From: Chiloscyllium plagiosum
Taxonomy: Eukaryota
NCBI RefSeq assembly: GCF_004010195.1
Contig: NC_057719.1
Span: 16,697,532-16,761,531 of the forward strand
Length of the DNA: 64,000 nt
Reading direction: 5' to 3'
Part shown: piece by piece, positions 7,394 to 61,873 of the stretch
Layout: every line of letters begins with the position of its first letter
How positions within the stretch are numbered: position 1 is the stretch's first letter
Notes under the pieces: model-generated
Database searches by the model: none
What the model was told of the DNA's origin: nothing
Seen by the model: only the letters and a program-made list of their open reading frames with translations
Made by a program: the position numbers and the translations under genes

Positions 7394-7596
7394 GAGAGTA
7401 TGATGCTGGAAAAGCACAGCAGGTCAGGCAGCATCTGAGGGACAGGAGAATCGAGAATGAGGCCTCATTCCTGATGAAGGGCATTTGCCTGAAACGTCGA
7501 TTCTTCGGCTCCTCGGACGCTGCCTGACCTGCTGCTGTGCTTTTCCAGCACCACACTCTCGACTCTGATCTCCAGCATCTGCAATCCGCATTTTCT
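7394..7596. mobile_element. Fold-back insertion of a Penelope-like terminal repeat with hammerhead motif; perfect 16-bp TSD
   Basis: Inverted arms around the palindrome GAATGAGGCCTCATTC (7455-7470). CATTCTGCTAAGGGCT at 7378-7393 and 7597-7612. The arm sequence is shared with the ends of the PLEs at 35.5 kb and 60.9 kb. Confidence 0.85.
7467..7502 (+). ncRNA. Minimal type I hammerhead ribozyme-like motif
   Basis: CTGATGA-A-GGGC-ATTT-GCCT-GAAAC-GTC: conserved core, stem II, palindromic ACGT stem III and GUC triplet. Confidence 0.7.
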
Positions 7597-8692
7597 CATT
7601 CTGCTAAGGGCTTCCTACTCAACTGGGAAGCCAAGTCTGTCAATGAGACTGGCTTCTGGTTGAAACACAGTGACAAAAGAAAGATTTGTACTGTGGAGTT
7701 AGAACTCCATTGTGCAGGGGAAGGCTGATCCCCAGTGTTTTCCTAGCCATTCACTCCTCCAATGCCATGTAACCCAGCCTGGTTTAAAGTATTTATGCTG
7801 TGACTGTGCCTGTGATTTTTACCACATTACAGCCCATGGATGATGATTACACATTATTCCTCATGCATCAAATTACGCTGAGCGTCTGATATTAGCAGGA
7901 AATTCAGATATAATCTCTCTGTTGAAATGTAGCATTCTAGATTATTTTTGTGTGCATTAAGTGTTTTCGTTCATTAATTACTGGGAATTAGATATGTTTG
8001 TAAGGCCTGGTGGAATCATATCTCAGCTCATTCCAGAACCCATTTCCCTGTTGATGTTTAGTAAGAGGCAGGTGGAGGCTCACAATGAAAACAAATATTG
8101 AAGTACTGACCACAACTGCAAACAGTCCCCTCATAATCCGGATTTGTAAAACTATCTGCCTGGTATCAAGCCTCCAGATCATCCCTGTGTGGTCTTCTCC
8201 AAATCCCCAACTTTCGCATTCATGAGCCAAGTGATCTAAAGCTTGCGGGTGCAAATTAAGTGAATGTTCCCACCATTTGCCCTGTCTGAACACTGGATAT
8301 TCAGTTGGTCCCTGAGGTCCGTAGGTTAATTTCAGTGCTAGGTGTCAACAGTAATGTAAACAATGATCCCTTTGAGAACAAACCCAGGCATGCTCCAGCA
8401 ATAGAGAGCAGCTGATGCTCTCTGGAGCATAGATGTGAAAACTAATTTCTGATCATTGTTCTTTTAATTAGTAAGATGAGTGATTTGATGGTGAAGAAAG
8501 AAAAGGGAGGATTTCCGCTTTTATAAGGAGGTGACCACTGTAGGATCCGAAGTGCATTACTTCCTGCTTGAACATTTCAATTTAGCCCCTTCCTCTTTGC
8601 CTACCCTTTGATTTTGTTATTTTTGCTCTGCCCCTGGTGATGAGGAGGAGCAGTGCTTGCAAATTGTGAACTTAATTAGTGTCATGGGTGAT

Positions 8693-8911
8693 TTGATAGT
8701 CACAGAGGCTGGTATCCGGTCCCCAAATCACCCCTTATTTACAAATGAACAGTCTTCGACTTTAATGCTGCTTCAATCTGAGTCAGCTAACAGATGACAC
8801 TCCCCTTTTTTTAACTGTCAGCCAGTGATCCCTGATTGGACCAGATTAACAGCCCCAATCAGGGAACTCATATTCTTTGAGGTCCAGCTGGCTGAACTCA
8901 TTATAATCACG
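8693..8911. mobile_element. Short solo-LTR-like interspersed repeat
   Basis: ~220-bp segment containing inverted CCAAT motifs (CCCTGATTGG...CCAATCAGGG). Recognised by overall appearance only. Confidence 0.3.
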
Positions 8912-10443
8912 ACAGATAATGGTTCAGTTTTTTTTAAAAAATGGACTGATTTCCCCCTTTAACTCCATTTTTGATTTAGCCCCTCCCTCTTTCCCTACCC
9001 TTTTTCATTTTTGCTGTTGTAATTAGTCGTTCGTTTTAATTATTAATTGGATAGTTTAGTGGTCAGTGTACAATAAAAAAGGATGATTTCCTCCAGTAAG
9101 AGGAGATGTAATGGAAGGAGAGGGAGTAGACTGGATTTACTGTTTGTTTTACTCAGTGCCTCAAAACAAGTGGTTTTATTTTAACTAATCCAGTGTTGGA
9201 GACAATTTCTGTGCATCAATCCTCTTAAATGTCTCTAAACATAAGTGCAAATCATTGACAGACATTCGAAAATGCATGTGCTTCCTCCCCAATTTCCTCC
9301 AATTATTTGTCATTGAACAGTAAAATTGCCTGTATTAACAGTTATGAAAAAATATGTAGTTGAAATCCTGTGGGGGGGAATGCGTAGTAGGAGTGTGTGA
9401 AGACTCTAGTTTGAGAATGTAAAGTTTCCAAAACATATGTATGAAATGTCACAAGATTCCATTATCAACTAAAGCTTTCACAGAACGTAGAAGCATTAAT
9501 CAACAATCAAGGATGTGCATTTATGTGGCAGCATCAGTGTGCTTCAGGACTAATTTTGAAGTGCAGTCACTGATGAAATGAGGGCTAACCTAGTTTTCCA
9601 AGGGATTAAACCTTCATTCTTTGAATAAGAGGACTAGATTTAGCAATGAGAACATCAAGCAGGTGAAGGCATGCAGGCAAGCTTAGCTCCATGGGCAGGC
9701 ATGGATTGTTCAGTCTATCCAGGTGGAGGATTAACTGGGGATTCACCTGGGCTCGTATATTTTTGGAACAGACTAAAACTGTGGTTTTTGGTAGAAAGTG
9801 CAGGTTTGTAGTGTGTATCTTGAAATAGATGCTTGATATTGGCTTGAATTGTAAATTTCATCCCTTTCTGGAATTTACCCCACAGATATGTTCACAGATT
9901 CCCCAGAATCCAAATTAATCCAAACCCAATGTAACAACTACTTTACAGTTCCGGAGTTAGCTGTAATTGTCAACTATAATTTAGTTGTAGTTTAAAATAA
10001 CTGAGATGGTGCTACTGTACCTCAAGATACTAAGCCCATTGTAAGTAATCAGTATTTCCCCGATGATCTGTGATTCAGCAGCACTATAAAGATTCTCTCA
10101 ATTAATCGTTTAACCTTCAGCTCTCACATTGACCAGTACCACAGGTTGTATAAGCAGTGGCTGTGTTTTGACCAGGCAATCAAGGCCTGTGCAATACTGG
10201 GAGGGGTGTGTAAGGAAAAGACGATCCTAAACCCACACAGGAATCACCTTCTAAATGTCAAATGATGGACAGATTTGACTGAATTTATTATTTGACTTGA
10301 TCTGGCCTAGTTTACACTCATCATTCATGGATATTTGATTGCAGGCTGTCCATAGCATATAATAATAAGTGGCATAATATCTAACACAAAAAGCTGGACA
10401 GATAAACCTGCATAGACCTGATATTCTAGTTCATCGCAACAGT

Positions 10444-10969
10444 TATAGAGCCACAGAAATTTACAGTATGGAAACAGACCCTTCGGTCCAACCTGTCCAT
10501 GCCAACTAGATATCCCAACCCAATCTAGTCCTTCCTGCCTGCACACGGCCCATATCCCTCCAAACCCTTCCTATTCATATACCCATCCAGATGCATTTTA
10601 AATGTTGTATTTGTACCAGCCTCCACCACTTCCTATTACAGCTCATTCCATACACACACCACCCTCTGCATAAAAATGTTGCCCCTTAGGTCCCTTTTGA
10701 ATTTTTCCCTTCTCACCCTAAACCTATACCCTCCAGTTCTGGACTCCCCCACCTCAGGGAAAAGATCTTGGTTATTTGCCCTATCCATGCCCTCATGATT
10801 TTATTAACCTTTCTAAAGGTCACCCTATTCATCCTTTCCCTATAGCTCAAATCCTCCAACCCTGGCAACATCCTTGTAAATCTTTTCTGAATGCTTTCAA
10901 ATTTCACAACATCCTTCCTATAGCAGAGAGACCAGAATTGCACACAGTATTCCAAAAGTGGCCTGACCA
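10444..10969 (-). mobile_element. CR1-clade LINE 3' end
   Basis: ORF 10713-10970 (VRPLLEYCVQFWS...IQKRFTRMLPGLEDLSYRER). Tail homologous to the 6264-6717 copy. Confidence 0.9.
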
Positions 10970-11644
10970 ATTGCTAATCCTTGCTGCAGCAAAACTTGCA
11001 CTCCAGTGTGATCTGATTATTTATTTGATTTCTGCCAAGTTTCAGTTACATTCTTGGCAGACTGATCAAAAACAACTGAATGAAAGGCGTACGTGACTGA
11101 TTTTGAGTTGATAGCAGAATAAGCTGATACTGTTGATATCTGAGCTCAAACATGTCATTGGTCCTGCATATCCCATCTCCTCTTAACTCACGAGTTGAAT
11201 GTTTCACTCTGCTTGGAATGTTTTTTTATTTTTGTTGCCAATTAGTGCTGAATTATTGGTGTGTTTGCAGCTCTCAACCCAAAGGGATTTGAATTAAGAT
11301 TATTTAAAAGCTCTGAAAGATTGTCTGAAAGAGAGATACTTAACTCCCACAAGCTGCATGAAAGGTATTCAAATTCAGCTCCCAGGAGTGAAACCATAAT
11401 GTTTCTGATCCAACTACCTGAACATAAACATTTGCAGATTTATTTTTCCTTCCCCTCCTCCAACCAGCATTACATTATTAAGTCAATAGTTCAATACTTA
11501 CTTAACTCTAAATTATTTGAACAGAATCTCCATTAAATGGCGGTGTTTCACCTTTTTTTCTATTAAATAAAATGGGCTAGGGCCAGCGGATACAGGACAC
11601 AGGGAATATATCCAGTGCAAGAAAATAAAGACCCAAGGTCTCTC

Positions 11645-15030: not shown

Positions 15031-15445
15031 GACCAAAAAACTGCAGATGCTGGAATCCAAAATAAACTGGCAGGCGGCTGGAAGAACACAGCAAGCCAAG
15101 CAGCATCATGAGGTGCACAAGTCAATGTTTCAGGTGTAACCCTTCTTCAGGACTGGGGGTTGGTGTGAGGGGAGCTACAGATAACGGGGGTGGCAGGGAC
15201 AGGGTGGTGTCCCTTCCACTGCTCCCTGCCACCAACCAGATTCATTCCTCCCATTGACCAACCAGATCATGCGCTGTACCTGTCTCCACCTATCCCCACC
15301 ACCACCCTGCCCTCCACCACTGTCTTTATCTGCAGCTCCCCCCACACCAACCCCCAGTCCTGAAGAAGGGTTACACCTGAAACATCGACTTGTGCACCTC
15401 ATGATGCTGCTTGGCTTGTTTTGTTCTTCCAGCCTGCTGCTTAAC
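15031..15445. mobile_element. Fold-back Penelope-like terminal repeat (inverted arms ~15071-15209 / ~15300-15440) with a hammerhead motif in each arm
   Basis: The arms are reverse complements over ~135 bp. The + strand motif at 15356-15390 is AGTC-CTGAAGA-A-GGGT-TAC-ACCT-GAAACATC-GACT, with a perfect 4-bp stem I. Confidence 0.85.
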
Positions 15446-23600: not shown

Positions 23601-24200
23601 CTTGTACAGGTCCTTCCTGCCCTGGAATAGATCCCAATGGGCCAGATATCTGACGCCCACTCTCCTATGCCAGCTCTTTAGCCACACATTCAACCGTATT
23701 ATCTTACTTTTGGCCCGGGCTTTTAATGAAGGGCTTTTGCCCGAAACATAGATTTTCCTGCTCCTCGGATGCTGCCTGACCTGCTGTGCTTTACCAGCAT
23801 CACTCTGATCTAAACCCCCCTTACTTTTGGCCCCACTAGCACATGATTCGGGGAGTAATCCCGAGATTACAACCTTAAATATCCTTCTTATCTAACTCCC
23901 TTTGCAGGACCTCATCTCTCTTTCTGCTTATGCTGTTAGTACCAATATGGACCACAATCTCTGGTTGCTCGCCTTTCAGTATATCCTGTGCCCGTGCTGA
24001 GATACACTTGGCATTCCTGGAGTCTGGCTTGAGTTCCTACCACTCTCTTACGCTTTGACCCTCCCTGCTGTACAACAATGCGAGCCGTGGTGCTACTGAT
24101 CTGGATGCTGCTGATGCTTTCCCTTATGAGGCACCCCACCCCTCAACAGTATCATGCTTGAGAGGGGATAGGCCACAAGGGCACCTCTACTGTCTTCCTG
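20655..24200 (-). mobile_element. Long degenerate CR1 LINE retaining ORF1 esterase, endonuclease, RT and 3' tail remnants
   Basis: PEIVVHIGTN (SGNH-esterase-like ORF1) near 23930-23965; GDFNFPNIDW in ORF 22869-23063; LLEKILRDRIYSHL..NQHGF in ORF 21772-21954; tail at 20655-20760. Confidence 0.85.
23717..23819 (+). mobile_element. Short PLE terminal-repeat insertion inside the CR1; perfect 14-bp TSD
   Basis: CTTACTTTTGGCCC at 23703-23716 and 23820-23833. Contains ATGAAGGGCTTTTGCCCGAAAC and GATGCTGCCTGACCTGCTGTGC. Confidence 0.8.
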
Positions 24201-26984: not shown

Positions 26985-27143
26985 ATCTGAGCTGATCTGG
27001 CTGGAAAAGCTCAGCATCGCTGGCAGCTTCTTTGAAGAGAAATCAGAGTGAATGTTTCAGGTCCGGGTGGCCCTTCCTCAGAATTCCCTCCCCTCATCCT
27101 ACTTTCTGCATAAAACCTTTTTTTTAACGAAGGGTCACCGGGC
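26985..27143. mobile_element. PLE-terminus repeat with minus-strand hammerhead-like motif (~27050-27083)
   Basis: Reverse complement reads TTCTGAGGAAGGGCCACCCGGACCTGAAACATTCAC. Same family as the 47.2, 47.7 and 53.7 kb copies. Confidence 0.6.
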
Positions 27144-28578: not shown

Positions 28579-28589
28579 AGGACTTATGC

Positions 28590-32073: not shown

Positions 32074-33434
32074 AAATGCATTTAAAATGCAAGCAGCTGA
32101 ATTTTCATGACTTTTATTTGTAAGACAAAAAATCATTCTTCCGGAATGTGCTTAAGTTCCAAAACAAGGTGAGTGACACTCATTTAATGCATTTCCTTTA
32201 TTTAAGTGCTTGTATTCGAAAAGTTAGCAAGTGCGGTGCAAAGTTTCAGGGCAGGTTCAACACAAGGAAATAGATGTGTCCCATCTACACAACTGAGCAG
32301 GTTTCCCAACCTGCTGTTATTGGCAGGGGTTTGTTGCTTTAATGCTAATGAGCAGAATGCGTTGGAAATGTGAGAAGTGTAGGCAAATGCACTCTGGGTC
32401 ATCTGCTCCGACTGACCCATTTTATAGCCTGGGTAATAATATTTTCCTTTGCTTGATTAGAACTAGTGCTAGAGATTGAGCAGTGGCCAGTGTACACGGT
32501 GAACAAACACAGATTATTCCAGCAGGAAGCAGACACTCTCCCGACAGGAGGCTAGCTGTCCCTTTCTTCTGATTTCACAGTTAATAGGGTTGTCTCCATG
32601 TGCAGCCGCACATGAAAGTGGAATATTTTCAGATATGAAACCTGTGTCGGAGGAGGATGGGAAAGGGTTGACGGCTGAGAGAAACTGTGGGTTGGAGGAA
32701 AAGGAAAGAGGAATCTATTAATAGTGTGGTATAAAACTGGAGAACAGAAAGGTAAAAGTGTATCAGCAGAGCCGTCTTGAACTGTGCTCACATGAAGGGA
32801 ATTTTATTTGGCTTTAGATACATCTTAATTGAGAAGAGCGATTTGACCAATTTAACAGAATAGAAAAGAAAATCTAACCTTGGCTTCTGCATCTTCAGGA
32901 TACTTCAAAATGCTTCACAAACTGAAGTGCAGTCAGTTGTTTTATAGACAGCTTGTGAAATACAAAGTCCTCCAAAGACGTATGAGGCAAATAACTAATC
33001 ATTAAAAACAGAAAATGCTGGAATAGCATAGCGGCTCTGCGAGCATCACTGGCAGAAGAAACAGAGTGAGCCTTTCAGGTCATTGACCCATCCGTAACAG
33101 CTTTGAGAAATTAACAGTGTGATGGATTAGGAGCAAGTAATAAGTGGATGTGGAATGTTGGGAAGGAATGTGGAAGGAAGGTCTCTGAAAAGACAGAAAG
33201 TGGGAAAGATTAAATGACCAAAATTTCCATGATGTAAAGTACAATTAAAAAGGATGTGTAGAGGAGGTGTGAATGGCAGATGCACAGAAAGTTCTGCCGA
33301 GACAGCGTGGAAAGGAGAGGACTAAAAGAATGAGCAAAACCAGCGAAGAAGGAGGAAGCCTCAACTTCATCTAAAACTGTTGAAATTGACTCCAGAGAGC
33401 TAAAAAGTTCCCAGTGTTCCACATCTTGCATTAT

Positions 33435-35557
33435 GCTCCCTCTGCTCCAATCCCAACCTCACCATCAAACCAGCGGATAAAGGGGGTGCAGTGGTAGTCT
33501 GGCGCAGTGACCTCTACACTGCTGAAGCCAGACGCCACCTCGAAGATACCTCTTCCTACTGCCCCCTCGACCATGACCCCACCCCCCATCACCAAACCAT
33601 CATCTCACAGACTATACAGAACCTCATCACCTCAGGAGATCTCCCATCTACAGCTTCCAACCTCATAGTCCGGGAACCCCGCACTGCCCGGTTCTACCTC
33701 CTTCCCAAGATCCACAAGCCTGACCACCCCGGCCGACCCATTGTATCAGCCTGCTCCTGCCCAACCTAACTCATCTCTACCTACCTTGATACCGTTATCC
33801 TCCCAGTTCAGGAACTCCCCACATACGTTTGAGACACCATCCATGCCCTCCTCTTCCTCCAAGACTTCCATTTTCCCGGCCACCAACGCCTCATCTTCAC
33901 CATGGACATCCAATCCCTCTACACCTCCATCCGCCATAACTAGGGCCTCCATTTCTTCCTCTCCCGACGTCCCCAACAGTATCCTTCCACCGACACTCTC
34001 ATCCGTTTGGCTGAACTGGTCCTCACCCTGAACACTTTCTCCTTCAAATCCTTCCACTTCCTCCAGACCAAAGGGGTAGCCATGGCCACCCGTATGGGCC
34101 CCAGCTATGCCTGTCTCTTTGTCGGCTACGTGGAACAGTCCATCTTCCATAGTTACACCGGCACCACTCCCCACTCTTCCTCTGCTACATTGATAACTGC
34201 ACCGGCGCTACATCGTGCTCCTGCGAGGAGGTTGAGCAGTTCGTCAATTTCAACACATTCCACCCCGACCATAAATTCACCTGGACCATCTCTGACACCA
34301 CTCTCCCCTTCCTGGACCTCTCCATCTCCATTAATGATGACCGACTTGACACTAACATTTTTTACAAGCCCATCGACTCCCACAGCTACCTGGATTACAC
34401 CTCTTCCCACCCTACCTCCTGCAAAAATGCCATCCCATATTCCCAATTCCTCCGCCTCTGCCGTATCTGCTCCCAGGGGGACCAGTTCCACCATAGAACA
34501 CACCAGATGGCCTCCTTCTTTAGAGATCACAATTTCCCTTCTCACGCATCTTATCCACATCCCGCATCTCCACCCTCAAACCCCATGCCTCCAACCGTAA
34601 CAAGGACAGAACCCCCTTGGTCCTCACCTTCCACCCTACCAACCTTCGCATTAACCATATCATCCACCGACATTTCCGCCACCTCCAAACGGACCCCACC
34701 ACCAGGGATATATTTCTCTCCCCACCCCTTTCTGCCTTCCGNNNNNNNNNNNNNNNNNNNNNNNNNNNNNNNNNNNNNNNNNNNNNNNNNNNNNNNNNNN
34801 NNNNNNNNNNNNNNNNNNNNNNNNNNNNNNNNNNNNNNNNNNNNNNNNNNNNNNNNNNNNNNNNNNNNNNNNNNNNNNNNNNNNNNNNNNNNNNNNNNNN
34901 NNNNNNNNNNNNNNNNNNNNNNNNNNNNNNNNNNNNNNNNNNNNNNNNNNNNNNNNNNNNNNNNNNNNNNNNNNNNNNNNNNNNNNNNNNNNNNNNNNNN
35001 NNNNNNNNNNNNNNNNNNNNNNNNNNNNNNNNNNNNNNNNNNTTCCCTGGATGCTGCCTGACCTGCTGTGCTGTTCCAGCAATAAAGTTTCAACTTTGAT
35101 CTCCAGCATCTGCAGACCTCACTTTCGCCTGGAGGAAGAATGCCTCATCTTCCACCTCGGAACACTTGAACCCCAGGGCATCAATGTGGACGTCACCAGT
35201 TTCCTAATTTCCCTTCCCCACACCTTACCTCAGTTCCAACCTTTCAGCTCAGCACTGTCCTCATGACCTGTCCTACCTGGCAATCTCCCTTCCCACCAAT
35301 CTCCTGAACCCTCCCCTCTGACCTATCACCTCCATCCCCACTCCCATTCACCTATTGTACTCTTTGCTACCTTCTCCCAGCCACTCCCCCCCCCTCCCCC
35401 GCGCCATTTATCTATCTCTCCCCCTGGAGACTGCCTGCCTCAATTCCTGATGATGGGCTTTTGCCTGAAACATCGATTTTCCTGCTTCTCGGATGCTGCC
35501 TAACCTGCTGTGCTTTTCTAAATTCTGGTTTCCAGCATCTGCAGTCTTCACTTTTGC
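33435..35557 (+). mobile_element. Penelope-like element: degenerate RT, assembly gap, then tandem terminal repeats with GIY-YIG C-terminus and hammerhead motif
   Basis: KPADKGGAVVVW, FYLLPKIHKP..PGRPIVS, MDIQSLYT and QTKGVAM..MGPSYACLF. A terminal-repeat end at 35043-35125 is followed by a second copy at 35126-35557. CTGATGATGGGCTTTTGCCTGAAACATCG begins at 35447. Confidence 0.9.
34742..35042. other. Assembly gap
   Basis: Run of N. Confidence 1.
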
Positions 35558-35624
35558 CGAGTACAATAGGAACCCTACTGTCTTTGCTGGAGGGAAGGGA
35601 AGGGATGAGAGGAAGAGCCTGTGA

Positions 35625-40598: not shown

Positions 40599-40651
40599 TA
40601 TGATGAACGAACAAATTTCATTCTATTTTTATTATGTTTTAATCTTTATAG

Positions 40652-40878
40652 AGTTAAAAATCACACAACACCAGGTTATAGTCCAACAGGTTTAATTGGA
40701 AGCACACTAGCTTTTGGAGCGTCGCTCCTTCATCAGGTGGTAGTGGAGGGTTGAGCCCTCCACTACCACCTGATGAAGGAGCGACGCTCCGAAAGCTAGT
40801 GTGCTTCCAATTAAACCTGTTGGACTATAACCTAGTATTGTGATTTTTAACTTTCTACACCCCAGCACCTCCAAATCA
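40652..40878. mobile_element. Near-perfect ~200-bp palindrome of a PLE terminal repeat with two opposed hammerhead motifs; 13-bp TSD
   Basis: Arms 40651-40750 / 40756-40853. TTAATC(T/C)TTATAG at 40639-40651 and 40879-40891. The sequence matches the 3' end of the GIY-YIG element at 57962-58090. Confidence 0.9.
40766..40802 (+). ncRNA. Minimal type I hammerhead ribozyme-like motif (best-preserved copy)
   Basis: CAC-CTGATGA-A-GGAGC-GAC-GCTCC-GAAAG-CTA^GTG: perfect 5-bp stem II, palindromic AGCT stem III and 3-bp stem I. Confidence 0.78.
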
Positions 40879-42213
40879 TTAATCCTTATAGGATTCTTGG
40901 ACTTTTTTAACGCAATGTTTTGATGCTATTTCCTTCCTCTACAGCTGGATCTTTATAGGTCAGGGTCACTATGTTCATTTACACAGAGATTTGAGGTGAA
41001 TGGCAGGGATTCAGGCACAGTTTCAGCAAACTGCTCCCCTTCCTTCATAATTCCCATTCAATAGCCCCTTTGCTGGTCACAATGCTGCATCTCTGAAGCA
41101 GCAATTCAGAAAATGGAGCTTAGAAGAGACCACAAACTGTTGCTTCATTTCCTTTCAAGGGGTTAATAAATTAGCCAGTGCTCCCTAGATCCCATTCCAC
41201 AAAAACTAGAAACCAGTGTCTTTATTGCCAAAGCCTTCACAGGTACGACATTGTTTTAAAACAAAAATGCATTCAAAATCTTCATTGCTATGAATATTGG
41301 AGCTCAAGTTAGTTGTGAGAAGGAAGGTCTTTCATTGCAAATATGTCTCTGTGAAACGGCCAGTGAAAACCTGGAACTCTCTCTCTCACCTTTTTCTCTG
41401 CTCACCACGCAAAATAGAAATGCTGTTGACCCGGGAATCTGGAGGAAAATTGGAAACTGAAGTTGTTTCAATTTTGTTAGACAAATGTGTTAAAGATTAC
41501 AGAACAAAAGCACGACTTGAAATAATGATCAACTATGATCTAATTGATTGGAAGAAAGGCTGGAGGGGCTAAATGACCTATTTCAGCTCCTGATGTGTGT
41601 TTCGCCTCATGAATATTGTCCTTTATTCCATTCCATTGACCTCAGCAGAGCACAGTGTGGATTGAGCTGTATATCAGGCAAGCAGTATCATAATCCTCTT
41701 ATGAATTTACTACCCAAACCACTGTTCCACCCTATTAATATTTTTTGGTGCTACATTCAAGTTTAAAATGTCATTTCTTTTTCAAAGTTATTTAAATCTT
41801 CATCTCCATCCTTTCCCCAAGGCATGGCTCATGCTGAGGTACTAACCCTCCTACTAACCCTCCATGCCAGTGCTCCCAAGTTATTTCTGATTGAGTGGCC
41901 ATATGGGGGATCTTGGTGAATGAATACCAGCAGACTGCTATTGGAGGTCATTGCAGTCACCTCAAATGTTCAAATGTGAGTTTCCTCTTCATGCCTGATA
42001 AATCAGTCAACACATGGTAGTGTGAGGCATTGAACCAAGGCATGTCCTATTTCACTTATTTCTTCAATGTGTGCTGCCTGAACCAACTGAATTCTCCATG
42101 GGAATAAATAGAAAGCTAGGTTTTTGTGTTCCGGGTATGAAAATCCTAACCTGATACAGTTAATATTTCCATGTAACTGGAAAGAGTTGATTTCTGGAAT
42201 ATATGTGATTTAA

Positions 42214-47150: not shown

Positions 47151-47187
47151 ATTTTAATTTTAAAACAACCTCCTTTCAATGTAGAGT

Positions 47188-47612
47188 CAAAAACAGAAAT
47201 TGCTGGAAAAGCCCAGCAGGTCTGGCAGCATCTGTGGAGAAAAATCAGAGTTCATGGGATCATAGTGTGGAAGCAGGTCGTTTGGCCCAATCAAGTCCGC
47301 ACTGACCCTCTGACGAGCATGTCGCCCAAATTTCCCATGGCCAATCCACCTTGCCTGGAGGCAACCCATGCAGACATGGGGAGAATTCCACACAAGCGGA
47401 TGCCTGAGTCTGGAATTGAACCCAGATCCCTGGCACTGTGAAGCAGCAGTGCTAACCACCGACCCAGCATGCCCCCTTTTTTGAGGGAGGATCACTTGAC
47501 CTGAAATGTTAATTATGATTTCTCTGCACAAATGCTGCCAGACCTGCTGAGCTTTCCCAGCAGTTTCTGTTTTTGTCTCTGATTTACAGCATCCGCAGTT
47601 CTTTTGGTTTTT
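47188..47612. mobile_element. Fold-back PLE-terminus repeat with a minus-strand HE1-like SINE (~47258-47472) inserted at its centre
   Basis: CAAAAACAGAAATTGCTGGAAAAGCCCAGCAGGTCTGGCAGCAT versus ATGCTGCCAGACCTGCTGAGCTTTCCCAGCAGTTTCTGTTTTTG. SINE head CCCTGGCACTGTGAAGCAGC lies between the arms. Confidence 0.8.
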
Positions 47613-47657
47613 ATTTCCTTTAAATGTACTAATTTTGCTTAAAATCAATGTCATTTT

Positions 47658-47842
47658 GCAAACAGAAACTGCTGGGGAAACTCAGTAGGTCTGATAGCAT
47701 TTGTGCAGAGAAAGCAGAGTTAATGTTTCCGGTCCAGTGACCCTTCTCGAGAACTAGCTGTGAAGTAGGGTCACTAGACCTGAAATATTGATTCTGCTTT
47801 TGTTTTTGTTTCAAATTTCTAGTATCTACAGTTCTTTATTTT
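47658..47842. mobile_element. Fold-back PLE-terminus repeat with two degenerate hammerhead-like motifs
   Basis: TTTCCGGTCCAGTGACCCTTC opposed to GAAGTAGGGTCACTAGACCTGAAA. Confidence 0.65.
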
Positions 47843-49718
47843 CCAGTCACTGTTTTGACTAAATTCATTTCTGCCGACTTTATTTTTATGGCTGAAGGAT
47901 GAATGTTAGTAAAACTAGAAGAATAATAGCTCTTAAAAAGTCCAAAAGAATTTATTGTGATGCTTCTCCATTGCCCTAGTGTTGGGACAAGTTTAAAAAT
48001 GCTTGCTTTCGTACATGGTGACTCTTAAATAAAACCAGGAAGCCATAGCAGACTCATCAGCATCTGAAAAAGAAAAACATTTGAATATTAAGTGGAGATA
48101 CTCAATCAGAACTCTGATAATTTGGTTCCCCGAGTTTCTTTTTAATTGATCAGTTTGTTAATTACAACTGGTGAGCATGGGGCAAGTGTCTTTGAAAACA
48201 ATTGGAGCTTAAGTACATTAAACTGGTAGAATATAAGCAACAATCTGGTAATTAACTGACAGGGCCTGGGTGATTAATCCCCCTCCTTTAGTTCAGTTAG
48301 TTAGTTCCACAAACTGGTTCACCTGTTGTTATTGGCACTTTATTACCAAAAGGAGAAAGTGATACTTAAGTTCGTACAGGCAACGTTTTATTGTGGTTTA
48401 CATATAATACAGTGAGGAGAAGCTAAATTGATTTTTTTTAAAATGGAGGAGTCCTCATTTGAAATAATTGGGCAAATGTGGAGTTGATCTCCAAATCAGA
48501 TTTCCAAATTCCTTCTGAGGTTGTCATAAATTTGGACAGTTGGTAATTTGCTAATATGGCGACCTATTGCTTGAAAATAGCGATTTTGAGTGCAGGACTG
48601 TTAGGGTGTTTTTAAAGTTTAAGGTACCTTTTTGTCATGTATCTGGGCATGCGTTGTGTGGATTGTTTCGGGTAATGTTCCCATTTCTGAATCCTTTGAT
48701 TGCACAATACTGTAGCCGTCACACTAAAACTATTGTCAAAACTAATTAAAGATAAGTCTAATGGACACCTTAAACCCAGCTTTTTCAGTGTAAGTCTAGT
48801 TTCAGAGAAAATAGATCATCTTGTTATTCTATGACTTGAGACTGAATCTGCATCATAGTGTGGGCAAACTGTATGAGGAGTCTAGTTGCTCTGATGGTGT
48901 TAGGATCAATAAGCATCATACTGGAACTTGTTCCATCAGTGAATCTGAGCATTAATCTTTGTACCTGGCACAGTAGGGTGTTTAGATTGAGGATGATTTA
49001 TTTGAAAATATATTTGAAAGGTTCCTGGTTAATTAACTGCGACTGTTGATCTCTACAGCCCCTTTATAATTCCAATTCCCACTTTCTGTGGTTCGTCAAT
49101 AAATCATTTTGATTGGGTTTTCTTTCACCATTTACAAGAAATGATAAAAATGAGTTATCCTTACTCAAGTTGTTATTAATCATTTCCCTCAGTAGGTTGC
49201 CTAATAGGTGTCTAATGGAAATGGTTTTGCTATTGTGAGAATCTGCAGCCTGTGGATATTATTTCTGTGCAACGACGTCTGTAATAAATCTTTGAATTGT
49301 AAGTGCTTTAAAGAAGTACTTAACAGCAGTTCCCGGATGACCTGCAGAGCAAAGGTGCTCATTGTTATATCATTAACCTGCACAGATCAAAACTTTCCAG
49401 GTTTCATCTCTGAAATTCTCTCTCACAAAAGATTATGGAACCTTCAAGAGCAAGATTGACTGATGTTTGATTGTTGGGTTAGGAATATTCATCCGTTCTT
49501 AAAATGGATCAACCATGAACTAATTGAGAGCCGATTTGGCCTTTTCCTGTTCGTTTGATCTCTGTCTCGATAGGGACATGACCGGTTCACCCTGGGGTTG
49601 TTGAGATGTGGAATTCCTATTCCCAATCATGGACCAGTGACTTCTGTTGGAAATCGCAGACCACAAGGTCTTGCTGAGTTTAAATAACCCACAACATAGT
49701 TTCACAGATTGAAGAATG

Positions 49719-49882
49719 ATTTGGAGATGCCGGTGTTGGACAGGTTTAATTGGAAGCACTAGCTTTCGGTGCGCTGCTCCCTCATCAGGTGGTTGACAAC
49801 CACTGATGAAGGAGCGGCACTCCGAAAGCTAGTCCGACCAATTAGAACTGTTGGACTATAACCTGGTGTTGTGTGATTTTTA
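49719..49882. mobile_element. Palindromic PLE terminal-repeat insertion with two opposed hammerhead motifs; perfect 13-bp TSD
   Basis: AGATTGAAGAATG at 49706-49718 and 49883-49895. Centre GTGGTTG-A-CAACCAC. CTGATGAAGGAGCGGCACTCCGAAAGCTAGT on the + strand. Confidence 0.9.
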
Positions 49883-52837
49883 AGATTGAAGAATGGCAGC
49901 TTAGAGCAACCAGTTCCTGGGGGAGTAGAACCTCTCACGTGTCTGTGTCTTCAGGAGCAGAGGAGAGAGAATTTTGCAAAACAAAAATGCAGCTTGTTTT
50001 GATGACATTTTTTTACCCAACTCTCTGGTCACTAACTTTTAGTGAGGTTGAGCCAGCTCTTATCCTGACTCTTTGTTTGTAGAGCACATCAGAAGGCATT
50101 AGTATCTCCACAGGAGTTAAATCTCATTGCTCATTCTCTTCACATTTGACAGTGTTAGTTACTAGTTCACAGGTATTCTTTTGCTATTCAAGGCCTATTG
50201 ACTTTCATAGGGCTGTTGCACCACAGTGATTGTGTCTGTACCTCTGGAACAAATGGCCTGGGTTCAGGTTCCACCTGGTCTGGAGATGTGGAATATCATC
50301 TCAAACAAGATTGTTCAGAAAATATCTCAATGCCAAACCATGTTGTAGTGGAAATCTGAAAATTAGCAAATGACCAATAAGAAACACACATATTTGTATA
50401 AGTCAGAATGGTTAAGATGCCTAAAGCATTTCCTATTGGAAGGTTCTTCTGTTTGTTGTGGTTAGAAATCCTGGCTCAAATCCAGCAAGCACCTAATTAT
50501 ATCAACTCCTTACAAGTTCAGCAACCTTCCCAATGCTGAAGATGTCAATAACCTTTAGCAAAGGTGACCTGATAGAAGTGAGACTCTGTTGGCTGTTGTG
50601 AGAGGACATTCTGAATTGGTAAATATCATATCCTGCAGAGAAGCTCCTTGCATATAAACATAGGACAAGAGGAGGCAAGGAGCGACAGCCTCTGTTACTC
50701 ACCCAATCTGTTTGATCTGACGATCCTCGTCTATATTGCGAGCTTGTAGGGAGCAAAAATCCGGGGAGAGAAATAGAACCAATTGCCACTTTTTTAAAAA
50801 ATTCTGGGAAATATACCTCAAACTCCCAAAGCAATCAGGTATCTTTGATATTTATCTGTGTCATTATCACGACATACACAACCTATTCCCACACCCCTCT
50901 ATGTGTCTCAAAGCCATTGGGAAATTGAAACCTCTTTACTCATCTGGGTAGAGACAAATGTCTCAAAATTCACTTTTCTACATTATTTCATATTATTTTA
51001 GCACACTTATCTGTAAAAGAAATCTGTTAGGGTGTTGAATTTTTATTTACACATATGCATGTTACCTGCAGATTCTGAACGTTTAGTTTCACATTGAGCC
51101 TGGAATAAAAACTGAACCGAACATTAATTGTGTTTTATACCAGGACATGGAAAAACAGAGGTAGCAAGTGAAGAAAATTACCGTTGTAAACTTTACTCCC
51201 TATGTGCAATATTAGTAGGCTTGTAGCAATTGTCTGTATTTGAATAAATGCAGGTATATGGTGCAGTTAATCAATCGTGAAATTCTGCAGACTGGACTGT
51301 CTATGTTGTTAAGCTGTGTGTGAAAGGTCGCTTCTGATGAGAACTATACAGAAAAGGACAACAATCTGATTTCAAGACAAATCGCTTTTGGTTAAATAAT
51401 TGGCTCTGTATTTTTTGTTTAATCTTCCGATACTACATTGCTTTATGTATTGATGAGTTCAATTTCTGAGAAGTTTAATCTGGTTATACATTTTGATGAT
51501 GTGTTGCAGATTCTGTTAGTTGTCTGTAAAGTCAGGGGGAAATCTTTCTTTTCCCATTCCCAGATTTTTTCCTTGCTTCATGAATAGGCCACACAGATCA
51601 TAATGGGGCAGAGGGTTCAGATGGTTATGCATTAGTAGAGGCTGCAAAAAGAAAGCACTGGCTGAACATGAAACATTATTTTTCTTCCTGAGTAACAAAG
51701 ATTTTTAAAAGGTTTGCAAAGACTGAGAATACACGCTTCCAAATAATCTGGTTATACCATCGGAGCAAAATTGTGTGATGGAGGGGAATCCTGCAACCGA
51801 TCACTTCTAACTCAACCACGCCTCTTGAAGAAGCTGCATTGGGGGTAGCATAAGTGTTTCAGGGCAAGGAGTGAAACAGGAGGTAGATATTTTTTTTAAA
51901 ATTAAGAACTTTGTTTTCTGAGGGAATTATCAGTAGATAGGTACATGTATAAAGGAAAACTAGAAAAATGCAGAATAAGAGTAGATGAACTGTGAATATA
52001 AAAGATGGATATTTTGATAAGATTGTGAAGCGACCATGTTAACTACTGTACTTGAGCACAATTGCAACTGAAGGTTTGTTGTGGAACTTGTGATGAGGAA
52101 ATTCCTGCTGTTATTTTATCTGCTGTGTATGTGTGCGTGTGCTGACTCTGTAAACTATAATGAACGCTGCTGTTTTTGACTGCTCTTTCTATACATATTG
52201 AAAGCTCAATGGGCCTGGCATGGATTTGTAACCTCAATAGAACACACCATTTATTCCCCCACCCCAAAGTGTACTTTTTTAAAAAATAACAATTTTAGTC
52301 TCCGAGAGTTTAGTTAAACAATAAAAGGAAATATGTCTCATAAGAGCTGTTAGATGACTTTCAGACAAAATAAAACATACCAATTTGTTGTGCAGTGATG
52401 TGTCTTCCTTTTTGAAACATCTAAAGATAATGTATCCATAAGGGTGTGCTAACTCATCCTTTCATTGCAAACATTCCATCCCAGCTACACCTTGTCCAGT
52501 CAAGCATTTCTTTACTTCTGGTGCTGTACCCAAAAGGACCATCCCAGCTACCAATCACATGTATCTTGAAGGAGTCTTTCCTGACGCTAGTACCCAGCAT
52601 TACCAGTTCATATTAAAATCTAATTTGTCTTATGTTTGCCACTGACTTAACTTACAACCTACAACAAAAGTTTTTTTGTGTGTGAACTGTCCCACTTTTT
52701 TTTCAAAAAAAAGGTTCAGTTTATTCTTTGACTTTGGTAAAGTTGTTTTCTTGATATGAGGTTTCACATGCACTTCAGACTTCCTAAGATCTCCCATGTA
52801 AACACCCTGCACATGTTAGCCTGAACAGAGTTGGCTC

Positions 52838-53070
52838 AGTCCCAACCCTCGAACTCAGCACCACCTTCCTAACCTGCAATCTTCTTCCTGACCTCTCCGT
52901 CCCCACCCCCACTCTGGCCTANNNNNNNNNNNNNNNNNNNNNNNNNNNNNNNNNNNNNNNNNNNNNNNNNNNNNNNNNNNNNNNNNNNNNNNNNNNNNNN
53001 NNNNNNNNNNNNNNTGCTCCTTGGATGCTGCCTGACCTGCTGCGCTTTTCCAGCAACACATTTTCAGCTT
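52838..53070 (+). mobile_element. PLE terminal-repeat fragment spanning an assembly gap (N 52922-53014)
   Basis: C-rich tract, then GGATGCTGCCTGACCTGCTGCGCTTTTCCAGC. Confidence 0.7.
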
Positions 53071-53675: not shown

Positions 53676-53893
53676 AAAACAAAGAACTGCAGACACTGTA
53701 ATAAAAACAGAAATTGCTGGAGAATCTCAGCAGGTCTGTGGAGAGAGAAAAACAGAGTTACCATTTCAGTTTCAGTGACCTTTCTTCTGGACAGAACCAT
53801 TCTGAAGGGTTACCAAACTCGAAATGCCGTTATTCTCTCCGCAGATACTGCCAGACCTATTGAGTTTATCCAGCAACCTCAGATTTTGTGATC
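53676..53893. mobile_element. Degenerate fold-back PLE-terminus repeat
   Basis: AAACAGAAATTGCTGGAGAATCTCAGCAGGTCTG with inverse CAGACCTATTGAGTTTATCCAGCAA. Confidence 0.6.
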
Positions 53894-56934: not shown

Positions 56935-59335
56935 AGAACAGTATATTACAGGAACAGGCCTTTCTGCCGACCAGGACTGCACCAACATATGGTGTATTTC
57001 TAAACTAAAACATTTTGCCTCTAAACTGTCCACATGCCTCTATCCCCTACTTATTCCTATCTGTCAAGATGCCTCTTAAATGTTGCTATTGTATCTGCCT
57101 CCACCACCTCTTCTAGCAGCGCATTCCAGGTATTTACCATGCTTTGTAGAAAAAAACTTGCCTCTCACTTTCCCCTGTTTACCTTAAACCTATGTCCCCT
57201 AGAAATTAATATTTCTACCCTGGGAAAAAGACTCCAACTATCTAGGCCAGTCATAATTTTGTAAATTTGTAATAGGTTGCCCCTTGTCCTTCGATGTTCA
57301 AGTGAAAACAAACCAGATTTATCCAATCTCTCTTCTTAATTAATACCCTCCAACCAGGCAACATTCTGGTAAACCATTTCTTTACCCTCTCCAGAGCCTC
57401 CACATCCTTCTGCCAGTGTGGCAACCAGAACTGCACACAAAGTTCTGAATGTGACCTAGCTAAAGTTATATACAGCTGGAACATGACTTGCCCACTTTGA
57501 TACTCTATGCTATGATTGACTAGGGCAAGTATGCCATATGTCTTCTTGGACCATCGTATCCACTTATGTTGCCACTTGCAGGAAAATCTTGACTCATATG
57601 TCTAGATCCCTCTATATGTTAATGTGTTTAAGAGTTCTCCTATTTTATTCTTCCCTCCTGCATTAAATCTTCCAAAATGCATCACCTTGCATTTGTCTGG
57701 AAACTCCATTTCTGCATCCAAGTCTCCAGCCTATCTACATCTTGCGGTATCCTTTAGCAATCTTCCTCACTATCCACAGCTCCCCCAATCTTTGTGTCAG
57801 CTAGAAACTTACTAATCAGGTCACCTACATTCTTCTCCAAATCATATATATTAACAAGCAACGTAGGCTGCACCATTCATCCCTGTGGGACACCAGTGGT
57901 CACAGATCTCCAGTCAGAAAAACACCCTTCCACTGCTACTCCGTCTTCTATGACTAAGCCATGATTTGGAGATGCCGGTGTTGGACTGGGGTGGACAAAG
58001 TTAAAAATCGCACAACACCAGGTTTTAGTCCAACACAATTATTTGGAAGCACTACCTTTCGGAGTGCTGCTCCTTCATCAGGTGGTTGTGGAGTAGAAGA
58101 TCGTAAGGCACAGAGCAAATGGTTACAGTGTGATGTCACTGAAATTATACATTGAAAAAGACCTGGATTGTTTTTTAAGTCTCTCATATTTTAGAATGAC
58201 CATGTTGGTTTCAGTTCTTCCATATGTCAATTGCAAAACTTTTTTTAAAGTTACATTCTCAAGTGAACTTTAACAATTGGTGTCATGTCAGCCCAGATAA
58301 TGCACTGAAGATGTGAGCTTCTCTCTGTGAGGCTGTCTGTGCCACAACGGTCAGACTGATTCTAATCTAAAAAACGGATTTACAGAATCTTACATGGATA
58401 CATGCAGTTTTTGAGCAAATTAAAATGTAATCCTGCAAGTACAAATTCACTCCACAAACTTATCTGTGTATGTGTGCATGTGGGTGTGTGTGTGTGTAGG
58501 GGGTGATGGGTGTCTGTGAGAGAGTGTGTGTACATGTGTGAGTATGAGTGCAAAGGGGTATAAGTTTCTGAGAGGGTGCATGTGAGTGTGTGCGAGTGTA
58601 TGTCTGAGCGTATGAGAGAGGATCTGCATGTGTATGGGTCAGTTGGAAGTGTGTGTGTGTGTCTGTCTGTCTCGGTCTGTGTGGTGTATAGGGCAATGGG
58701 GTCAGCTGTTGTGTGACATGAACCCAAGGTCCCGGTTGAGGCCATCGCCATGGGTACCGAATTTGGCTGTCAGCCTCTGCTCAGCCACTTTTTGTTGTTG
58801 TCTGTTCCAAAGTTTGCCTTGGATGACAGTCACCCGAAGGTCAGAGGTCGAATGTCCTGGACCACTGGTGTTCTCCGACTGGGAGGGAACACTCCTATCT
58901 GTTGATTGTTGTGCGATGCCCATTCATCCGTTGCCTCTGCTTGGGTCTTGCCAATGTACCATGCCTCAGGGTATCTTTGCCTACAGCATATGACATAGGC
59001 AACGTTGGCTGAGTTGCATGGGTACCTGCCACGTACATGATGGGAGGTGTCCCCACGTGTAATGGTGGTATCTGTGCCAACATTCGGACATGTCTTTCAA
59101 GGTTGTATGGTGTTGGCCTGAAAGCTGGGCAGTTTGCTACGAACAATGATCTGCTTGAGCTTTGGTGGCTGTTTAAAGGCGAGAAGTGGAGGTGTGGGGA
59201 AGGTCTTAGCGAGGTGGTCACCCTCATTGATAATGTGTTGTAGCCTGCGAAGAACATGGCGGAGTTTACATGGCACAGAACATGACTAAGCCAGTTTTGT
59301 ATCCATCTTACAATCTTATCCATCCGTCCATCCTC
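56935..59335 (-). mobile_element. CR1 LINE fragment split by a PLE insertion (CR1 parts ~56935-57961 and ~59282-59335)
   Basis: ORF 57251-57484 (LYITLARSHSELCVQFWLP..ALERVKKWFTRMLPG). KIVRWIQNWLSH continues across the insertion. Confidence 0.82.
57962..59281 (-). mobile_element. 5'-truncated Penelope-like element (GIY-YIG endonuclease region + 3' terminal repeat with hammerhead); perfect 12-bp TSD
   Basis: ATGACTAAGCCA at 57950-57961 and 59282-59293. SCNSANV.Y.I.C...WYIG, RMNGHR and EQRLTAKFGTHGDGLNRDLGF. Hammerhead motif at 58050-58085 (-). Confidence 0.9.
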
Positions 59336-59377
59336 TGATTTTTCTCTCTTCACTAATTTGTTGGAGTTTTTAAAAAT

Positions 59378-59571
59378 AGAATCACTACAGTGTGGAAACA
59401 GGCCCTACAGCCCAACAAGTCCATACCGACCCTCTGAAGAGTAACCCATTCAGACCCATTCCCCTACCCTATATTTACACCTGACTAATGCACTTAACCT
59501 ACACATCCATGAACACTACGGGCTATTTAGCACAGCCAATTCATTTAACATACACAGTTTTGGATTGTGGG
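59378..59571 (-). mobile_element. HE1-like SINE 3' half
   Basis: ACAGTGTGGAAACAGGCCC...CTGACTAATGCAC...TTGGATTGTGGG is homologous to 27145-27320. Confidence 0.8.
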
Positions 59572-59919
59572 ATTTTGTTTGTTTTTTTAAGCAAAATTCA
59601 GTTCTGTTGTTCGACCTAATCCTTGAGATTGTGTAATTACATGATTATGTTTTGGTTTATTACTTTCTTTAACATTTCTAGTTAACGATCAATGGTGCAG
59701 CAGTCACTTGGATTTATTCTTACCCATTGCAATACATCTCAATGTGCCAATTCACTTTAGCCAGCTGAGCTTTCATACGCTCATGTGACTGACTCTTAAC
59801 TGCCCTCTGGGCAGCTAGAGATGAGCAATAAATGTTGGCTTAGTCAGCAATGCTTCCATGCTGTGAATGGATTTTAAAAGTCCTCTTAATTACATTTTTA
59901 AAAACAGTCTCAGACCCAC

Positions 59920-60246
59920 TCATAAAATCCCTACAGTGAGGAAAGTGGCCATTCGGCCCATCAAGTCTACACTAACCCTCCAAAGAGCATCCACCCAGTC
60001 CTAGCTCTCACCATATCTCCACTTACCATGGCTAAGCCACCTCGCCTGCAGGTCCCTATGACATTACAGGGAAATTTAGCAATGGTCAACCCGCCTACCT
60101 TGGATACCTATGGGAGGAAACCAGAGCACCTGGAGGAAACCCACGCAGACACAGGAAGAATGTGCAAAATTTGCACAGTTGCGCAAGGCTGGAATCAAAC
60201 CAGGGTTCTTGACACTGAGAGACAGCATCGCTAAGCACTGAGCCAT
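59920..60246 (-). mobile_element. HE1-like V-SINE
   Basis: Contains GGGAGGAAACCAGAGCACCTGGAGGAAACCCACGCAGACACAGGAAGAATGTGCAAA. Confidence 0.82.
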
Positions 60247-60359
60247 TTGTCTCTCCCTCAAACTAAATGTAAAATGGGAATGGGAGAATCTTGATGTGGT
60301 CTATGTAGGTACAAATAAAAGAGTCTGCATCAACCTTCCAAAGAGGTTATCCTTCTGTA

Positions 60360-60810
60360 TTGTGTAGAGAGAGAAACAGAGTTAACACTGAAGCAAAAAC
60401 GGAAATTGCTGAAAAGGCTCTGCAGGACGTGGAGAGAAATCGAAATTAACGTTTCGGGTTCAGTTACCCTTCCACGGAAGTGATGATAACTAGGAATGTG
60501 TTGGTTTGTATGCAGAGGATTGAGGGTGGGAGAAAGAGAGCGTGAGAGGCATACACAATAGGTGGATATAGAACCAAAGAGAGAGAAGAATGGTTGGACA
60601 GACAAAGGAGTGCAGAACAATCAGCCTAGGAGAATGCATAACTATTAGTGAACAATTAGTGGATAATAATGGGTAGTGCATAATAGTAGACTGTGAGATA
60701 ATAAGGCCTGGCGTGTGGGGGTTGGGGTAAGCACATGTGAGGGTATCTCAAGCCCTAAAATTGTTGAACTCAATATTGAGACCTGAAGAGTTCCCAAGCA
60801 GAAAATAAGT
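60360..60810 (-). mobile_element. PLE 3' fragment (endonuclease end + terminal repeat)
   Basis: LIFCLGTLQ near 60780-60810. Motif GGAAGGGTAACTGAACCCGAAACGTT on the minus strand at ~60448-60475. Confidence 0.65.
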
Positions 60811-60812
60811 CC

Positions 60813-61650
60813 TGGAGAAAGTGAGGACTGCAGATACTGGAAATCAGAGTTGAGAGTGTGGTGCTGGAAAAGCACATCAGGTCAGGCAGCATCCAAGGAG
60901 CAGGAGAATCAATGTTTCAGGCATAAGCCCTTCATCAGCTTGTGGATTAGTTGGGAGTGGGGGCAGGGGGAGGAAAACTGAGAAATAAATGGGAAGGGAT
61001 GGGGCTGGGGAAGGGGAAGGTAGCTGGGAATGTGGATGAAGGTAGATGAAGGTGCAGGTGGATGTGATGGGTCGGAAGGTACGGTAGAGCGGATGAGTGG
61101 GAAGGAAGGAAGGAAGATGGACAGGTAGGACTAGTCAAGAGGGTGGGGCTTGGGATGGATAAGATGGAAGAAGGGGAAAATGAGGAAACTGGCGAAATCC
61201 ACACTGATCCCGTGTGGTTGCAAGGTCCCAAGGTGGAAGATGAGGCGGTCTTCCTCCAGGCATCTGGTGGTAAGGGTTAGGTAATGGAGGAGGCCCATGA
61301 GCTGCATGTCCTTGGAGTGGGGGGGGGAGGGGAGGGGAGTTAAAATGCTCAGCCTCGGGACAGAAGGGATTGGTTGGTGCAGGCGTCCCAGAGGTATTCT
61401 GAAATGATCCACAAGTTTGTGTCCTGTCTCCCCAAAGTACAGGAGACCACATTAGGTACAATGGATGCAGTAGATAACATACATGGAAATACAGGTAAAT
61501 TCTGTCAGCTGTGGAATGATCCTTTGGACAGAGGTGAGGTGTGGGCACAGGGTTTGCACTTCTTGCAGCAGCTGAGAAAGGTGCCGGGGTGGGGTGGGGT
61601 GGGGTGCATGGATCTGACGATGGAGTCACAGAGAGGATGGTCTCTGCAAG
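60813..61650 (-). mobile_element. PLE 3' fragment: GIY-YIG region + terminal repeat with hammerhead motif (~60907-60940)
   Basis: MQLMGLLH..TRCLEEDRLIFHLGTLQPHGISVDF; CTGATGAAGGGCTTATGCCTGAAACATTG. Confidence 0.85.
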
Positions 61651-61873
61651 ATTTGTGAAGGTTTGTAGCTCAGGTTGAGGTTTAGGGTGTAGGTTTGATA
61701 TCCAGACATTTCATTACCTGGCTAGGTAACATCATCAGTGGCGACCTCCAAGTGAAGCGAAGCTGTTGTCTCCTGCTTTCTATTTATATGTTTGTCCTGG
61801 ATGGGGTTCCTGGGGTTTGTGGTGATGTCATTTCCTGTTCGTTTTCTGAGGGGTTGATAGATGGTATCTAGAT

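Follow-up and report, generated by a model that had tools for sequence, protein, structure and literature searches.

Minimal hammerhead motifs and their probable origin in Penelope-like elements in a 64-kb window of the Chiloscyllium plagiosum genome

Motifs and element fragments at the locus

The window analyzed here, the whole 64-kb stretch of Chiloscyllium plagiosum contig NC_057719.1, carries fragments of Penelope-like elements (PLEs) and, at 13 sites named in an initial annotation, short motifs that resemble minimal hammerhead ribozymes (min-HHRs). Each of the 13 sites holds a motif or a remnant of one; for minus-strand sites, the position given in that annotation is the low end. Numbered by C3, the first base of the catalytic core, the sites lie at 7471, 15360, 23723, 35447, 40770, and 49803 on the plus strand and at 15150, 27081, 40736, 49788, 58081, 60938, and 61738 on the minus strand. 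The corresponding cut registers, in order of position, are 7498, 15124, 15386, 23750, 27051, 35474, 40708, 40798, 49760, 49831, 58053, 60911, and 61705. Altogether, our results indicate that the motifs are very probably min-HHRs of PLE 3' terminal repeats, that they belong to three lineages (A, B, and C), and that the copies present here are likely inert relics.

The window was searched on both strands with a strict descriptor (CTGANGA, stem II of at least 4 bp, GAAA-NN-T-H), which was composed after reading the initial annotation. We found nine matches, whereas 200 block-wise dinucleotide shuffles averaged 0.04 and never exceeded 1; all nine lie at one position of homologous repeats. The core itself is short and loose matches to it are common in the window, as would be expected if the motifs were coincidental; chance is refuted by the shuffle comparison, and we give it practically no weight. 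A covariance model built from 16 window sites recovers its training sites by construction and, beyond them, finds 47755 on the plus strand (E 0.005) and 53795 on the minus strand (E 0.01), both decayed, plus nine weaker matches. Further decayed lineage-A copies lie at 47481 and 47760 (plus strand) and at 47751, 53789, and 60477 (minus strand).

The motif is ordered as stem I 5' strand, C3-A9, an extra base, stem II, G12-A13-A14, A15.1-N-N-U16.1, H17, and stem I 3' strand. Its catalytic core (C3-U4-G5-A6-N7-G8-A9, G12-A13-A14-A15.1, U16.1-H17) is complete in 11/13 named sites and broken in 23723, where a 5' truncation within the core has removed C3 and G5, and in 40736, which carries G12A. All 13 lack helix III and its loop and have G at 10.1, with the closing pair of helix II being G-C in six and G.U, a CpG-type change, in seven. 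An extra base separates A9 from 10.1, and in each of the nine strict matches stem II is longest with this one-base register. Absence of helix III and loop 3, the extra base between 9 and 10.1, a G10.1-C11.1 pair, a palindromic 15.2-16.2, and a dimer model are how Cervera and De la Pena defined the min-HHR in 2014 (PMC4209133). By every sequence test run, the motifs of the window are members of that class. The 4-nt palindrome and the extra base, offered in the initial annotation as an inference, are thus already published features, and the extra base cannot argue for dependence on a dimer since it also occurs in some canonical hammerheads (PMC4209133). The canonical type-I hammerhead of Rfam has a helix III with a loop and a 6-bp helix I with tertiary contacts; the motifs here have no helix III with a loop and no Rfam hammerhead match.

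The origin proposed for the motifs, namely PLE minimal hammerheads of the dimer type, was borne out by their context as well as by these published features. Motifs 35447, 58081, 60938, and 61738 lie 3' of PLE reverse transcriptase (RT) or GIY-YIG fragments on the same strand, and every lineage has at least one copy in such a position. The RT matches carry RVT_1, and their full-length relatives carry both RVT_1 and GIY-YIG. In lineage A, a broken RT open reading frame (ORF) at 33371..34742 (+), 84-88% identical to Chiloscyllium proteins P0037 and P0038 and with a piece at 33404 that is 95% identical to a Chiloscyllium punctatum protein, runs into an N gap. A partial tandem follows at 35044..35558 (+), in which an A1 tail (35044-35126) is succeeded by a 5'-truncated second copy with an endonuclease C-terminus, a 3' untranslated region (UTR), and the min-HHR of 35447 (35441-35480, with ACAU); the ribozyme of the first copy would fall inside the gap. 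A second lineage-A 3' end, at 60810..61541 (-), comprises a Zn-linker and GIY-YIG fragment (61541-61203), a 3' UTR, the min-HHR of 60938 (60905-60944, with ACAU and stem I lost), and a tail. Family B is represented by a 5'-truncated PLE at 57950..59293 (-), in which a GIY-YIG-like fragment (59255-58911), a 3' UTR, the min-HHR of 58081 (58047-58087), and a tail all lie inside one 12/12 target-site duplication (57950-57961 / 59282-59293). For lineage C, a broken ORF at 61845..64000 (-), made up of RT (64000-62586), an N gap, and an endonuclease C-terminus, leads to the min-HHR of 61738 (61699..61744, -), which lies about 110 nt past the endonuclease end and has a 7-bp stem II, an AUGU wobble palindrome, and a 3-bp stem I. 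The lineage-C RT is 77-78% identical to Stegostoma proteins, and this match and that to C. punctatum mark the DNA as shark-like. By the Zn-linker criterion of Craig et al. 2021 (PMC8557442), in which Neptune-type PLEs carry a Zn-finger linker, we read lineage A as Neptune-type and lineage C as Penelope/Poseidon-type, and lineage B is probably Neptune-like. No intact arrangement of an ORF between two pseudo-long terminal repeats (pLTRs) was found in the window.

Several side observations concern these element fragments. The C element (61650-64000, -) has apparently inserted into the ORF of an A-lineage element (60810-61640, -). Hammerheads of two families thereby share a strand at a distance of 800 nt, with no cross-pairing between their stem I strands. 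All three assembly gaps (34742-35042, 52922-53014, and 61874-62583) fall inside PLE copies. A GIY-YIG fragment of an A-type PLE at 28599-28886 (+) has no hammerhead downstream; when the endonuclease fragment 28562-29041 was used to look for homologs, none emerged among 539 candidates, and tblastn with longer relatives placed it. The lineage-C RT (62619-63200, -) is 58-60% identical to trematode PLE proteins (Schistosoma, Opisthorchis, and Clonorchis), and the lineage-C hammerhead resembles Clonorchis rows in Fig. S3 of PMC4209133. In the RT tree, the shark and flatworm sequences form an unresolved fork that neither shows nor opposes horizontal transfer, and a literature search on horizontal transfer gave no match. 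A metagenome scan with P0005 found two short loci, without terminal repeats and without a match to the model.

Insertion anatomy

The remaining motifs lie in short insertions, many of them inverted pairs. A head-to-head inverted A1 insertion at 7378..7612 is flanked by 16/16 direct repeats (7378-7393 / 7597-7612) and has a tail at its right end only; its plus arm carries the near-intact min-HHR of 7471 (7465..7504, +), with a complete core, ACGU, a stem II closed by G.U, and a stem I of 2 bp plus 1, and its minus arm is without a ribozyme core. The stretch missing from that inverted arm (7388-7465), about 26 nt, coincides almost exactly with the core of the ribozyme and stem II; a perfect 16-nt palindrome remains at the junction, and the arm picks up again 2 nt ahead of the cut register. 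The two A2 motifs, at 15118..15156 (-) and 15354..15392 (+), form the left and right arms of an inverted pair and both have an ACAU palindrome. An A1 3' fragment at 23717..23819 (+), truncated inside the core, has a 14/14 target-site duplication (23703-23716 / 23820-23833). The A3 motif at 27045..27087 (-) is decayed, with ACAU and the first stem I pair broken, and an A3 remnant at 60442..60483 (-) has kept ACGU with a broken core. Two inverted A3 pairs at 47171..47845, the first of which has a 12/13 duplication (47171-47183 / 47616-47628), contain the decayed motifs at 47481, 47751, and 47760, and a further inverted A3 pair at 53676..53889 contains heavily decayed motifs at 53789 (-) and about 53800 (+). 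In two more inverted A3 pairs, at 29396-29780 and 25960-26180, stem II or the core of the ribozyme is deleted or eroded.

Two inverted insertions belong to family B. The first, at 40639..40891, has arms (40664-40750 / 40756-40842) that are 97% complementary, a 12/13 target-site duplication, and a tail at the right end only; the left arm carries the motif with the G12A-broken core (40702..40742, -), and the right arm carries the intact motif of 40770 (40764..40804, +), with a 5-bp stem II, AGCU, and a 3-bp stem I. The second, at 49706..49895, has a 13/13 duplication and a tail at the left end only, and its motifs show an A-A mismatch in stem II (49788, -) and loss of stem I (49803, +).

Target-site duplications of 12-16 bp with a score of at least 10 flank 6/15 candidate insertions, whose boundaries were picked by eye, compared with 7/286 random pairs. 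In all four duplication-flanked inverted pairs, the 30-40-nt tail is present on one end only, as judged by eye. Across the window, the copies retain the ribozyme and up to about 2 kb upstream; their 5' ends vary, and their 3' ends fall at one of two fixed points, with or without the tail. This is the anatomy described for endonuclease-positive (EN+) PLE units, which show 5' truncation, partial tandems, an adjacent inverted 5'-truncated copy, and a 30-40-bp tail at one end (PMC8557442), and we found no difference of substance from the account given there. The insertions here, 5'-truncated, inverted or tandem and with an optional one-sided tail, fit EN+ PLEs. The one-sided tail also matches the two reverse-transcription start sites that give an optional tail in the lizard PLE Poseidon_Ac (PAc, from Anolis), whose pLTR likewise carries a hammerhead and which uses uncut RNA as the template for insertion (Frangieh et al. 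2024, PMC11167929). Unlike Poseidon_Ac, which is active and was assayed, the elements of the window have broken ORFs.

The short copies might instead form an independent non-autonomous family (retrozyme-like, or resembling short interspersed elements [SINEs] or miniature inverted-repeat transposable elements) with a ribozyme-driven cycle of its own. Most copies are indeed 100-450 bp long, with duplications and inverted ends, and non-LTR retrozymes, which have type-I hammerheads, stem from PLE pLTRs, with one chondrichthyan known (Li et al. 2026, bioRxiv 10.64898/2026.07.22.740005). Such retrozymes, however, are defined by tandem repetition, each unit bearing a motif, and there is no motif-bearing array in the window, where 0/41 tandem-repeat rows cover a motif. 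In addition, the 5' ends vary while the 3' ends are fixed, the sequences run upstream into PLE ORFs, and PLEs normally give rise to inverted, 5'-truncated copies that are tailed on one side (PMC8557442). We therefore regard a separate family as quite improbable and favor the origin from PLE 3' terminal repeats.

Decay, lineages, and predicted folding

Some copies are degenerate, as the initial annotation stated: the sole fully intact copy among the 13 is 40770, which carries every published min-HHR consensus feature. Three more (7471, 49788, and 61738) are near-intact, and each of the remaining nine is without a core base, the palindrome, or stem I. Helix I has 3-4 contiguous pairs in 7/13 (15150, 15360, 40736, 40770, 49788, 58081, and 61738), two pairs and a mismatch in 7471, 35447, and 23723, and is lost in the other three. 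The stem forms listed in the initial annotation were found, with the exception of A1 stem I, which is AUUC/GAUU with a U-U mismatch. The palindrome, described there as ACGT or AGCT, has that form in 5/13 (ACGT in one, AGCT in four); the rest show ACAT (six), ATGT (one), or AGGT (one), and seven of these eight changes are of CpG type. All seven fall among the eight named sites of lineages A and C, where ACGT is kept in one, ACAT is found in six, and ATGT in one. With CpG at 0.29 of its expected frequency in this DNA, we read the CpG-type transitions as neutral decay after insertion. Two copies (7471 and 60477) together with this mutation pattern suggest that the palindrome of A and C was originally ACGT. 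Most of the post-insertion decay would consist of CpG transitions affecting the palindrome and C11.1-G12.

The families were said to be otherwise dissimilar, which holds for B (the AGCU type) and C (the 61738 type). The GGGC (A1), GGGT (A2), and 27081-type (A3) motifs, in contrast, have about 70-90 nt of homologous downstream sequence in common and therefore make up one lineage, A, so that the window holds three lineages, not four or more. When the proposed cross-family covariation was checked in a 16-row alignment, 7/9 named pairs change on both sides, with contributions from three lineages, and the covariation score of 0.331 (shuffled mean, 0.215±0.028) is reached by 0/500 shuffles. Because the three A types reduce the independent comparison to three lineages, we consider the covariation suggestive.

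Some observations weigh against our interpretation. A structure slid by +1 scores 0.238 against the 0.331 of the named pairs, which leaves covariation unproven. An Rfam scan gave zero matches to the motif at the gathering score, and none of its 13 matches at E ≤ 10 is to a hammerhead family; these 13 were set aside as hairpin artefacts (microRNA families) on the inverted repeats. No ORF adjoins 7471, 15150/15360, 23723, 27081, or the 40.7-kb and 49.8-kb pairs, which were assigned by DNA homology. A convincing duplication is absent from 9/15 candidate insertions, their boundaries having been set by eye. The A2 subfamily may truly have lost ACGT, ACAU being common to both of its arms. Finally, one more ribozyme could sit unseen in the gap at 34742-35042 of the partial tandem 34742-35558.

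How the motif would work in an active parent element can be proposed from published PLE work. The core and stem II would fold with helix III lacking. In its absence, either another copy would have to pair through the A15.1-N-N-U16.1 palindrome or the protein of the element would have to aid the fold, and the cut would then follow H17. Insertion was likely templated by uncut read-through RNA, since the copies keep the ribozyme with upstream sequence and end at one of the two fixed 3' points. In published work, the min-HHR monomer is inactive and a dimer or trimer cleaves weakly (PMC4209133), and the PAc ribozyme cuts only with the protein of the element (PMC11167929), a protein-assisted route that the initial annotation omitted in stating that the motifs could work only as dimers.

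The cuts predicted after 7498 and 40798 are correct in register, but both sites are predicted to be buried in inverted-repeat hairpins. The insertion at 40639..40891 folds into a predicted hairpin of -178.7 kcal/mol in which the intact 40770 is paired with its antisense twin, and 7471, 49788, and 49803 are likewise buried in predicted hairpins. A head-to-head transcript would thus pair sense with antisense and bury the motif, and twins on opposite strands cannot serve as dimer partners. Co-folding of short motifs gave cross-pairing through stem II and not a dimeric hammerhead; therefore, energy does not favor the active dimer. Lunse et al. reportedly described dimer cleavage in 2016, according to a sentence in a review.

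As ribozymes, the motifs offer little that is new: the class was described in 2014 together with its architecture and the dimer model, and the majority of the copies in the window are broken. They resemble the min-HHRs of PMC4209133 in their short helix I, in the many families per genome, in occurring mostly as single copies from truncated PLEs, and in their opposite-strand pairs. The Fig. S3 alignment of that paper holds both ACGU and AGCU forms, and its turtle (Chrysemys) row, with AGCU and a CCAAAUAAA run after helix I, resembles family B. The present set differs in having a CUA cut site with a 4-nt palindrome, in contrast to the CUU, CUC, and GUA of the rows consulted, and no cartilaginous fish appears in the consulted part of Fig. 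S3 and Table S1 (PMC4209133). Shark-like genomes provide several abundant PLE hammerhead families.

Family-B transcripts and other repeats

RNA reads were placed on 57900-61870 at 85% likeness and thus derive from all copies of each family. Run X16 (polyA single-cell, about 2% sampled) yielded 8,858 placed reads, and run X17 yielded 0. For 40756-41400, a search of sequencing runs listed no RNA run that contains it. Among the places listed for X16, there is no pile-up of read starts or ends at 58053, 60911, or 61705, a weak test because short cut products would be lost and most copies are decayed; 40798 and 7498 lie outside it. This result bears on whether some genomic copies, e.g., 40770 or 7471 on the plus strand, cut host transcripts in place. 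The former is fully intact and the latter nearly so, and since family copies are abundant in polyA RNA (all 8,858 reads fall on a 4-kb stretch), partners in trans exist. Nevertheless, in addition to the missing pile-up, both copies are predicted to be buried in long hairpins, the 40736 partner of 40770 is on the opposite strand and carries G12A, no intact same-strand pair of one family is visible in the window, and the published min-HHR showed no activity in monomeric form and weak activity in dimeric or trimeric form (PMC4209133). We consider in-place cutting most unlikely, in keeping with the view of these copies as relics of PLE terminal repeats.

The reads also reveal the family-B sequence at two informative positions. 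Position 58055 is read as G in 977/1052 reads, which identifies AGCU as the family-B palindrome where the genomic copy has AGGU, and at 58038 the A of AAUAAA is present in 669/681, with AUUAAA in three other B copies of the window. This hexamer (58043-58038, -) is followed by an addition site at about 58026, so that the poly(A) signal and site together occupy 58026..58043 (-). In X16, 353 reads have poly(T) loose ends before 58026 (agreement 0.82); they were not collapsed by molecule, and few loci could be their source. In the sense of the element, poly(A) begins 27 nt after the cut register at 58053 and 12 nt after the hexamer position. Runs of A in the DNA at this point are no longer than four, which is evidence against internal priming, and GU-rich sequence lies beyond. 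The polyadenylated RNAs read across the cut site. Inserted B copies end 30 and 65 nt further 3' than the poly(A) site; therefore, polyadenylated RNA could not have templated them. We found no published report of a poly(A) site in PLE pLTRs, most subscription papers being outside the search. Several Fig. S3 rows of PMC4209133 show AAUAAA after helix I, and a used poly(A) site beside the motif, as seen here, has no mention in the consulted part of that paper.

That family-B RNAs are polyadenylated past an uncut site is also what one would expect if the motif, although real, were dispensable for transposition, either as a PLE passenger or as a protein-assisted fold with another role. In the same direction, PAc inserts normally in vitro when its ribozyme is mutated, RNA-seq reads with an end at the cut are absent (PMC11167929), and Naiad PLEs spread without canonical hammerheads (PMC8557442). 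On the other hand, the core and compensating stems are held in three lineages here and across 40 metazoan species in PMC4209133, which implies selection on the fold. We regard dispensability as a real possibility, though one that we do not favor; it concerns function and is compatible with the motifs being min-HHRs of PLE 3' terminal repeats.

Within about 130 nt, the family-B pLTR would combine the hammerhead, the poly(A) site, and, 30 and 65 nt beyond that site, two putative starts of reverse transcription. Since polyadenylated RNA stops before the inserted 3' ends, only read-through RNA could be copied. A tentative and rather unlikely extension is that this pLTR acts as a switch between mRNA, template, and decay, with the ribozyme stripping poly(A) from the mRNA when helped by a partner or a protein. 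If true, the many scattered copies would in turn supply host transcripts with poly(A) sites. The poly(A) site lets one ask whether cleavage removes the tail of PLE mRNA and whether the template must read through.

Other repeats also lie in the window. A Pfam scan of 248/285 stop-to-stop ORFs of at least 62 aa (the 37 in masked repeats were omitted) gave retroelement domains and four weak non-retroelement matches; it identified no host exon, and short exons would escape it. RT or zf-RVT fragments of the long interspersed element (LINE) type and another dispersed repeat lie at 748-1640 (-), 3716-4504 (+), 6263-6700, 10445-10970, 17029-17250, and 55092-55646 and are unrelated to the hammerhead motifs. 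A minisatellite at 17877-18922 (33 bp, 31.7 copies) is without a hammerhead. At 59386, where another abundant repeat ends, 1,395 RNA reads have poly(T) loose ends; we take this repeat to be SINE-like.

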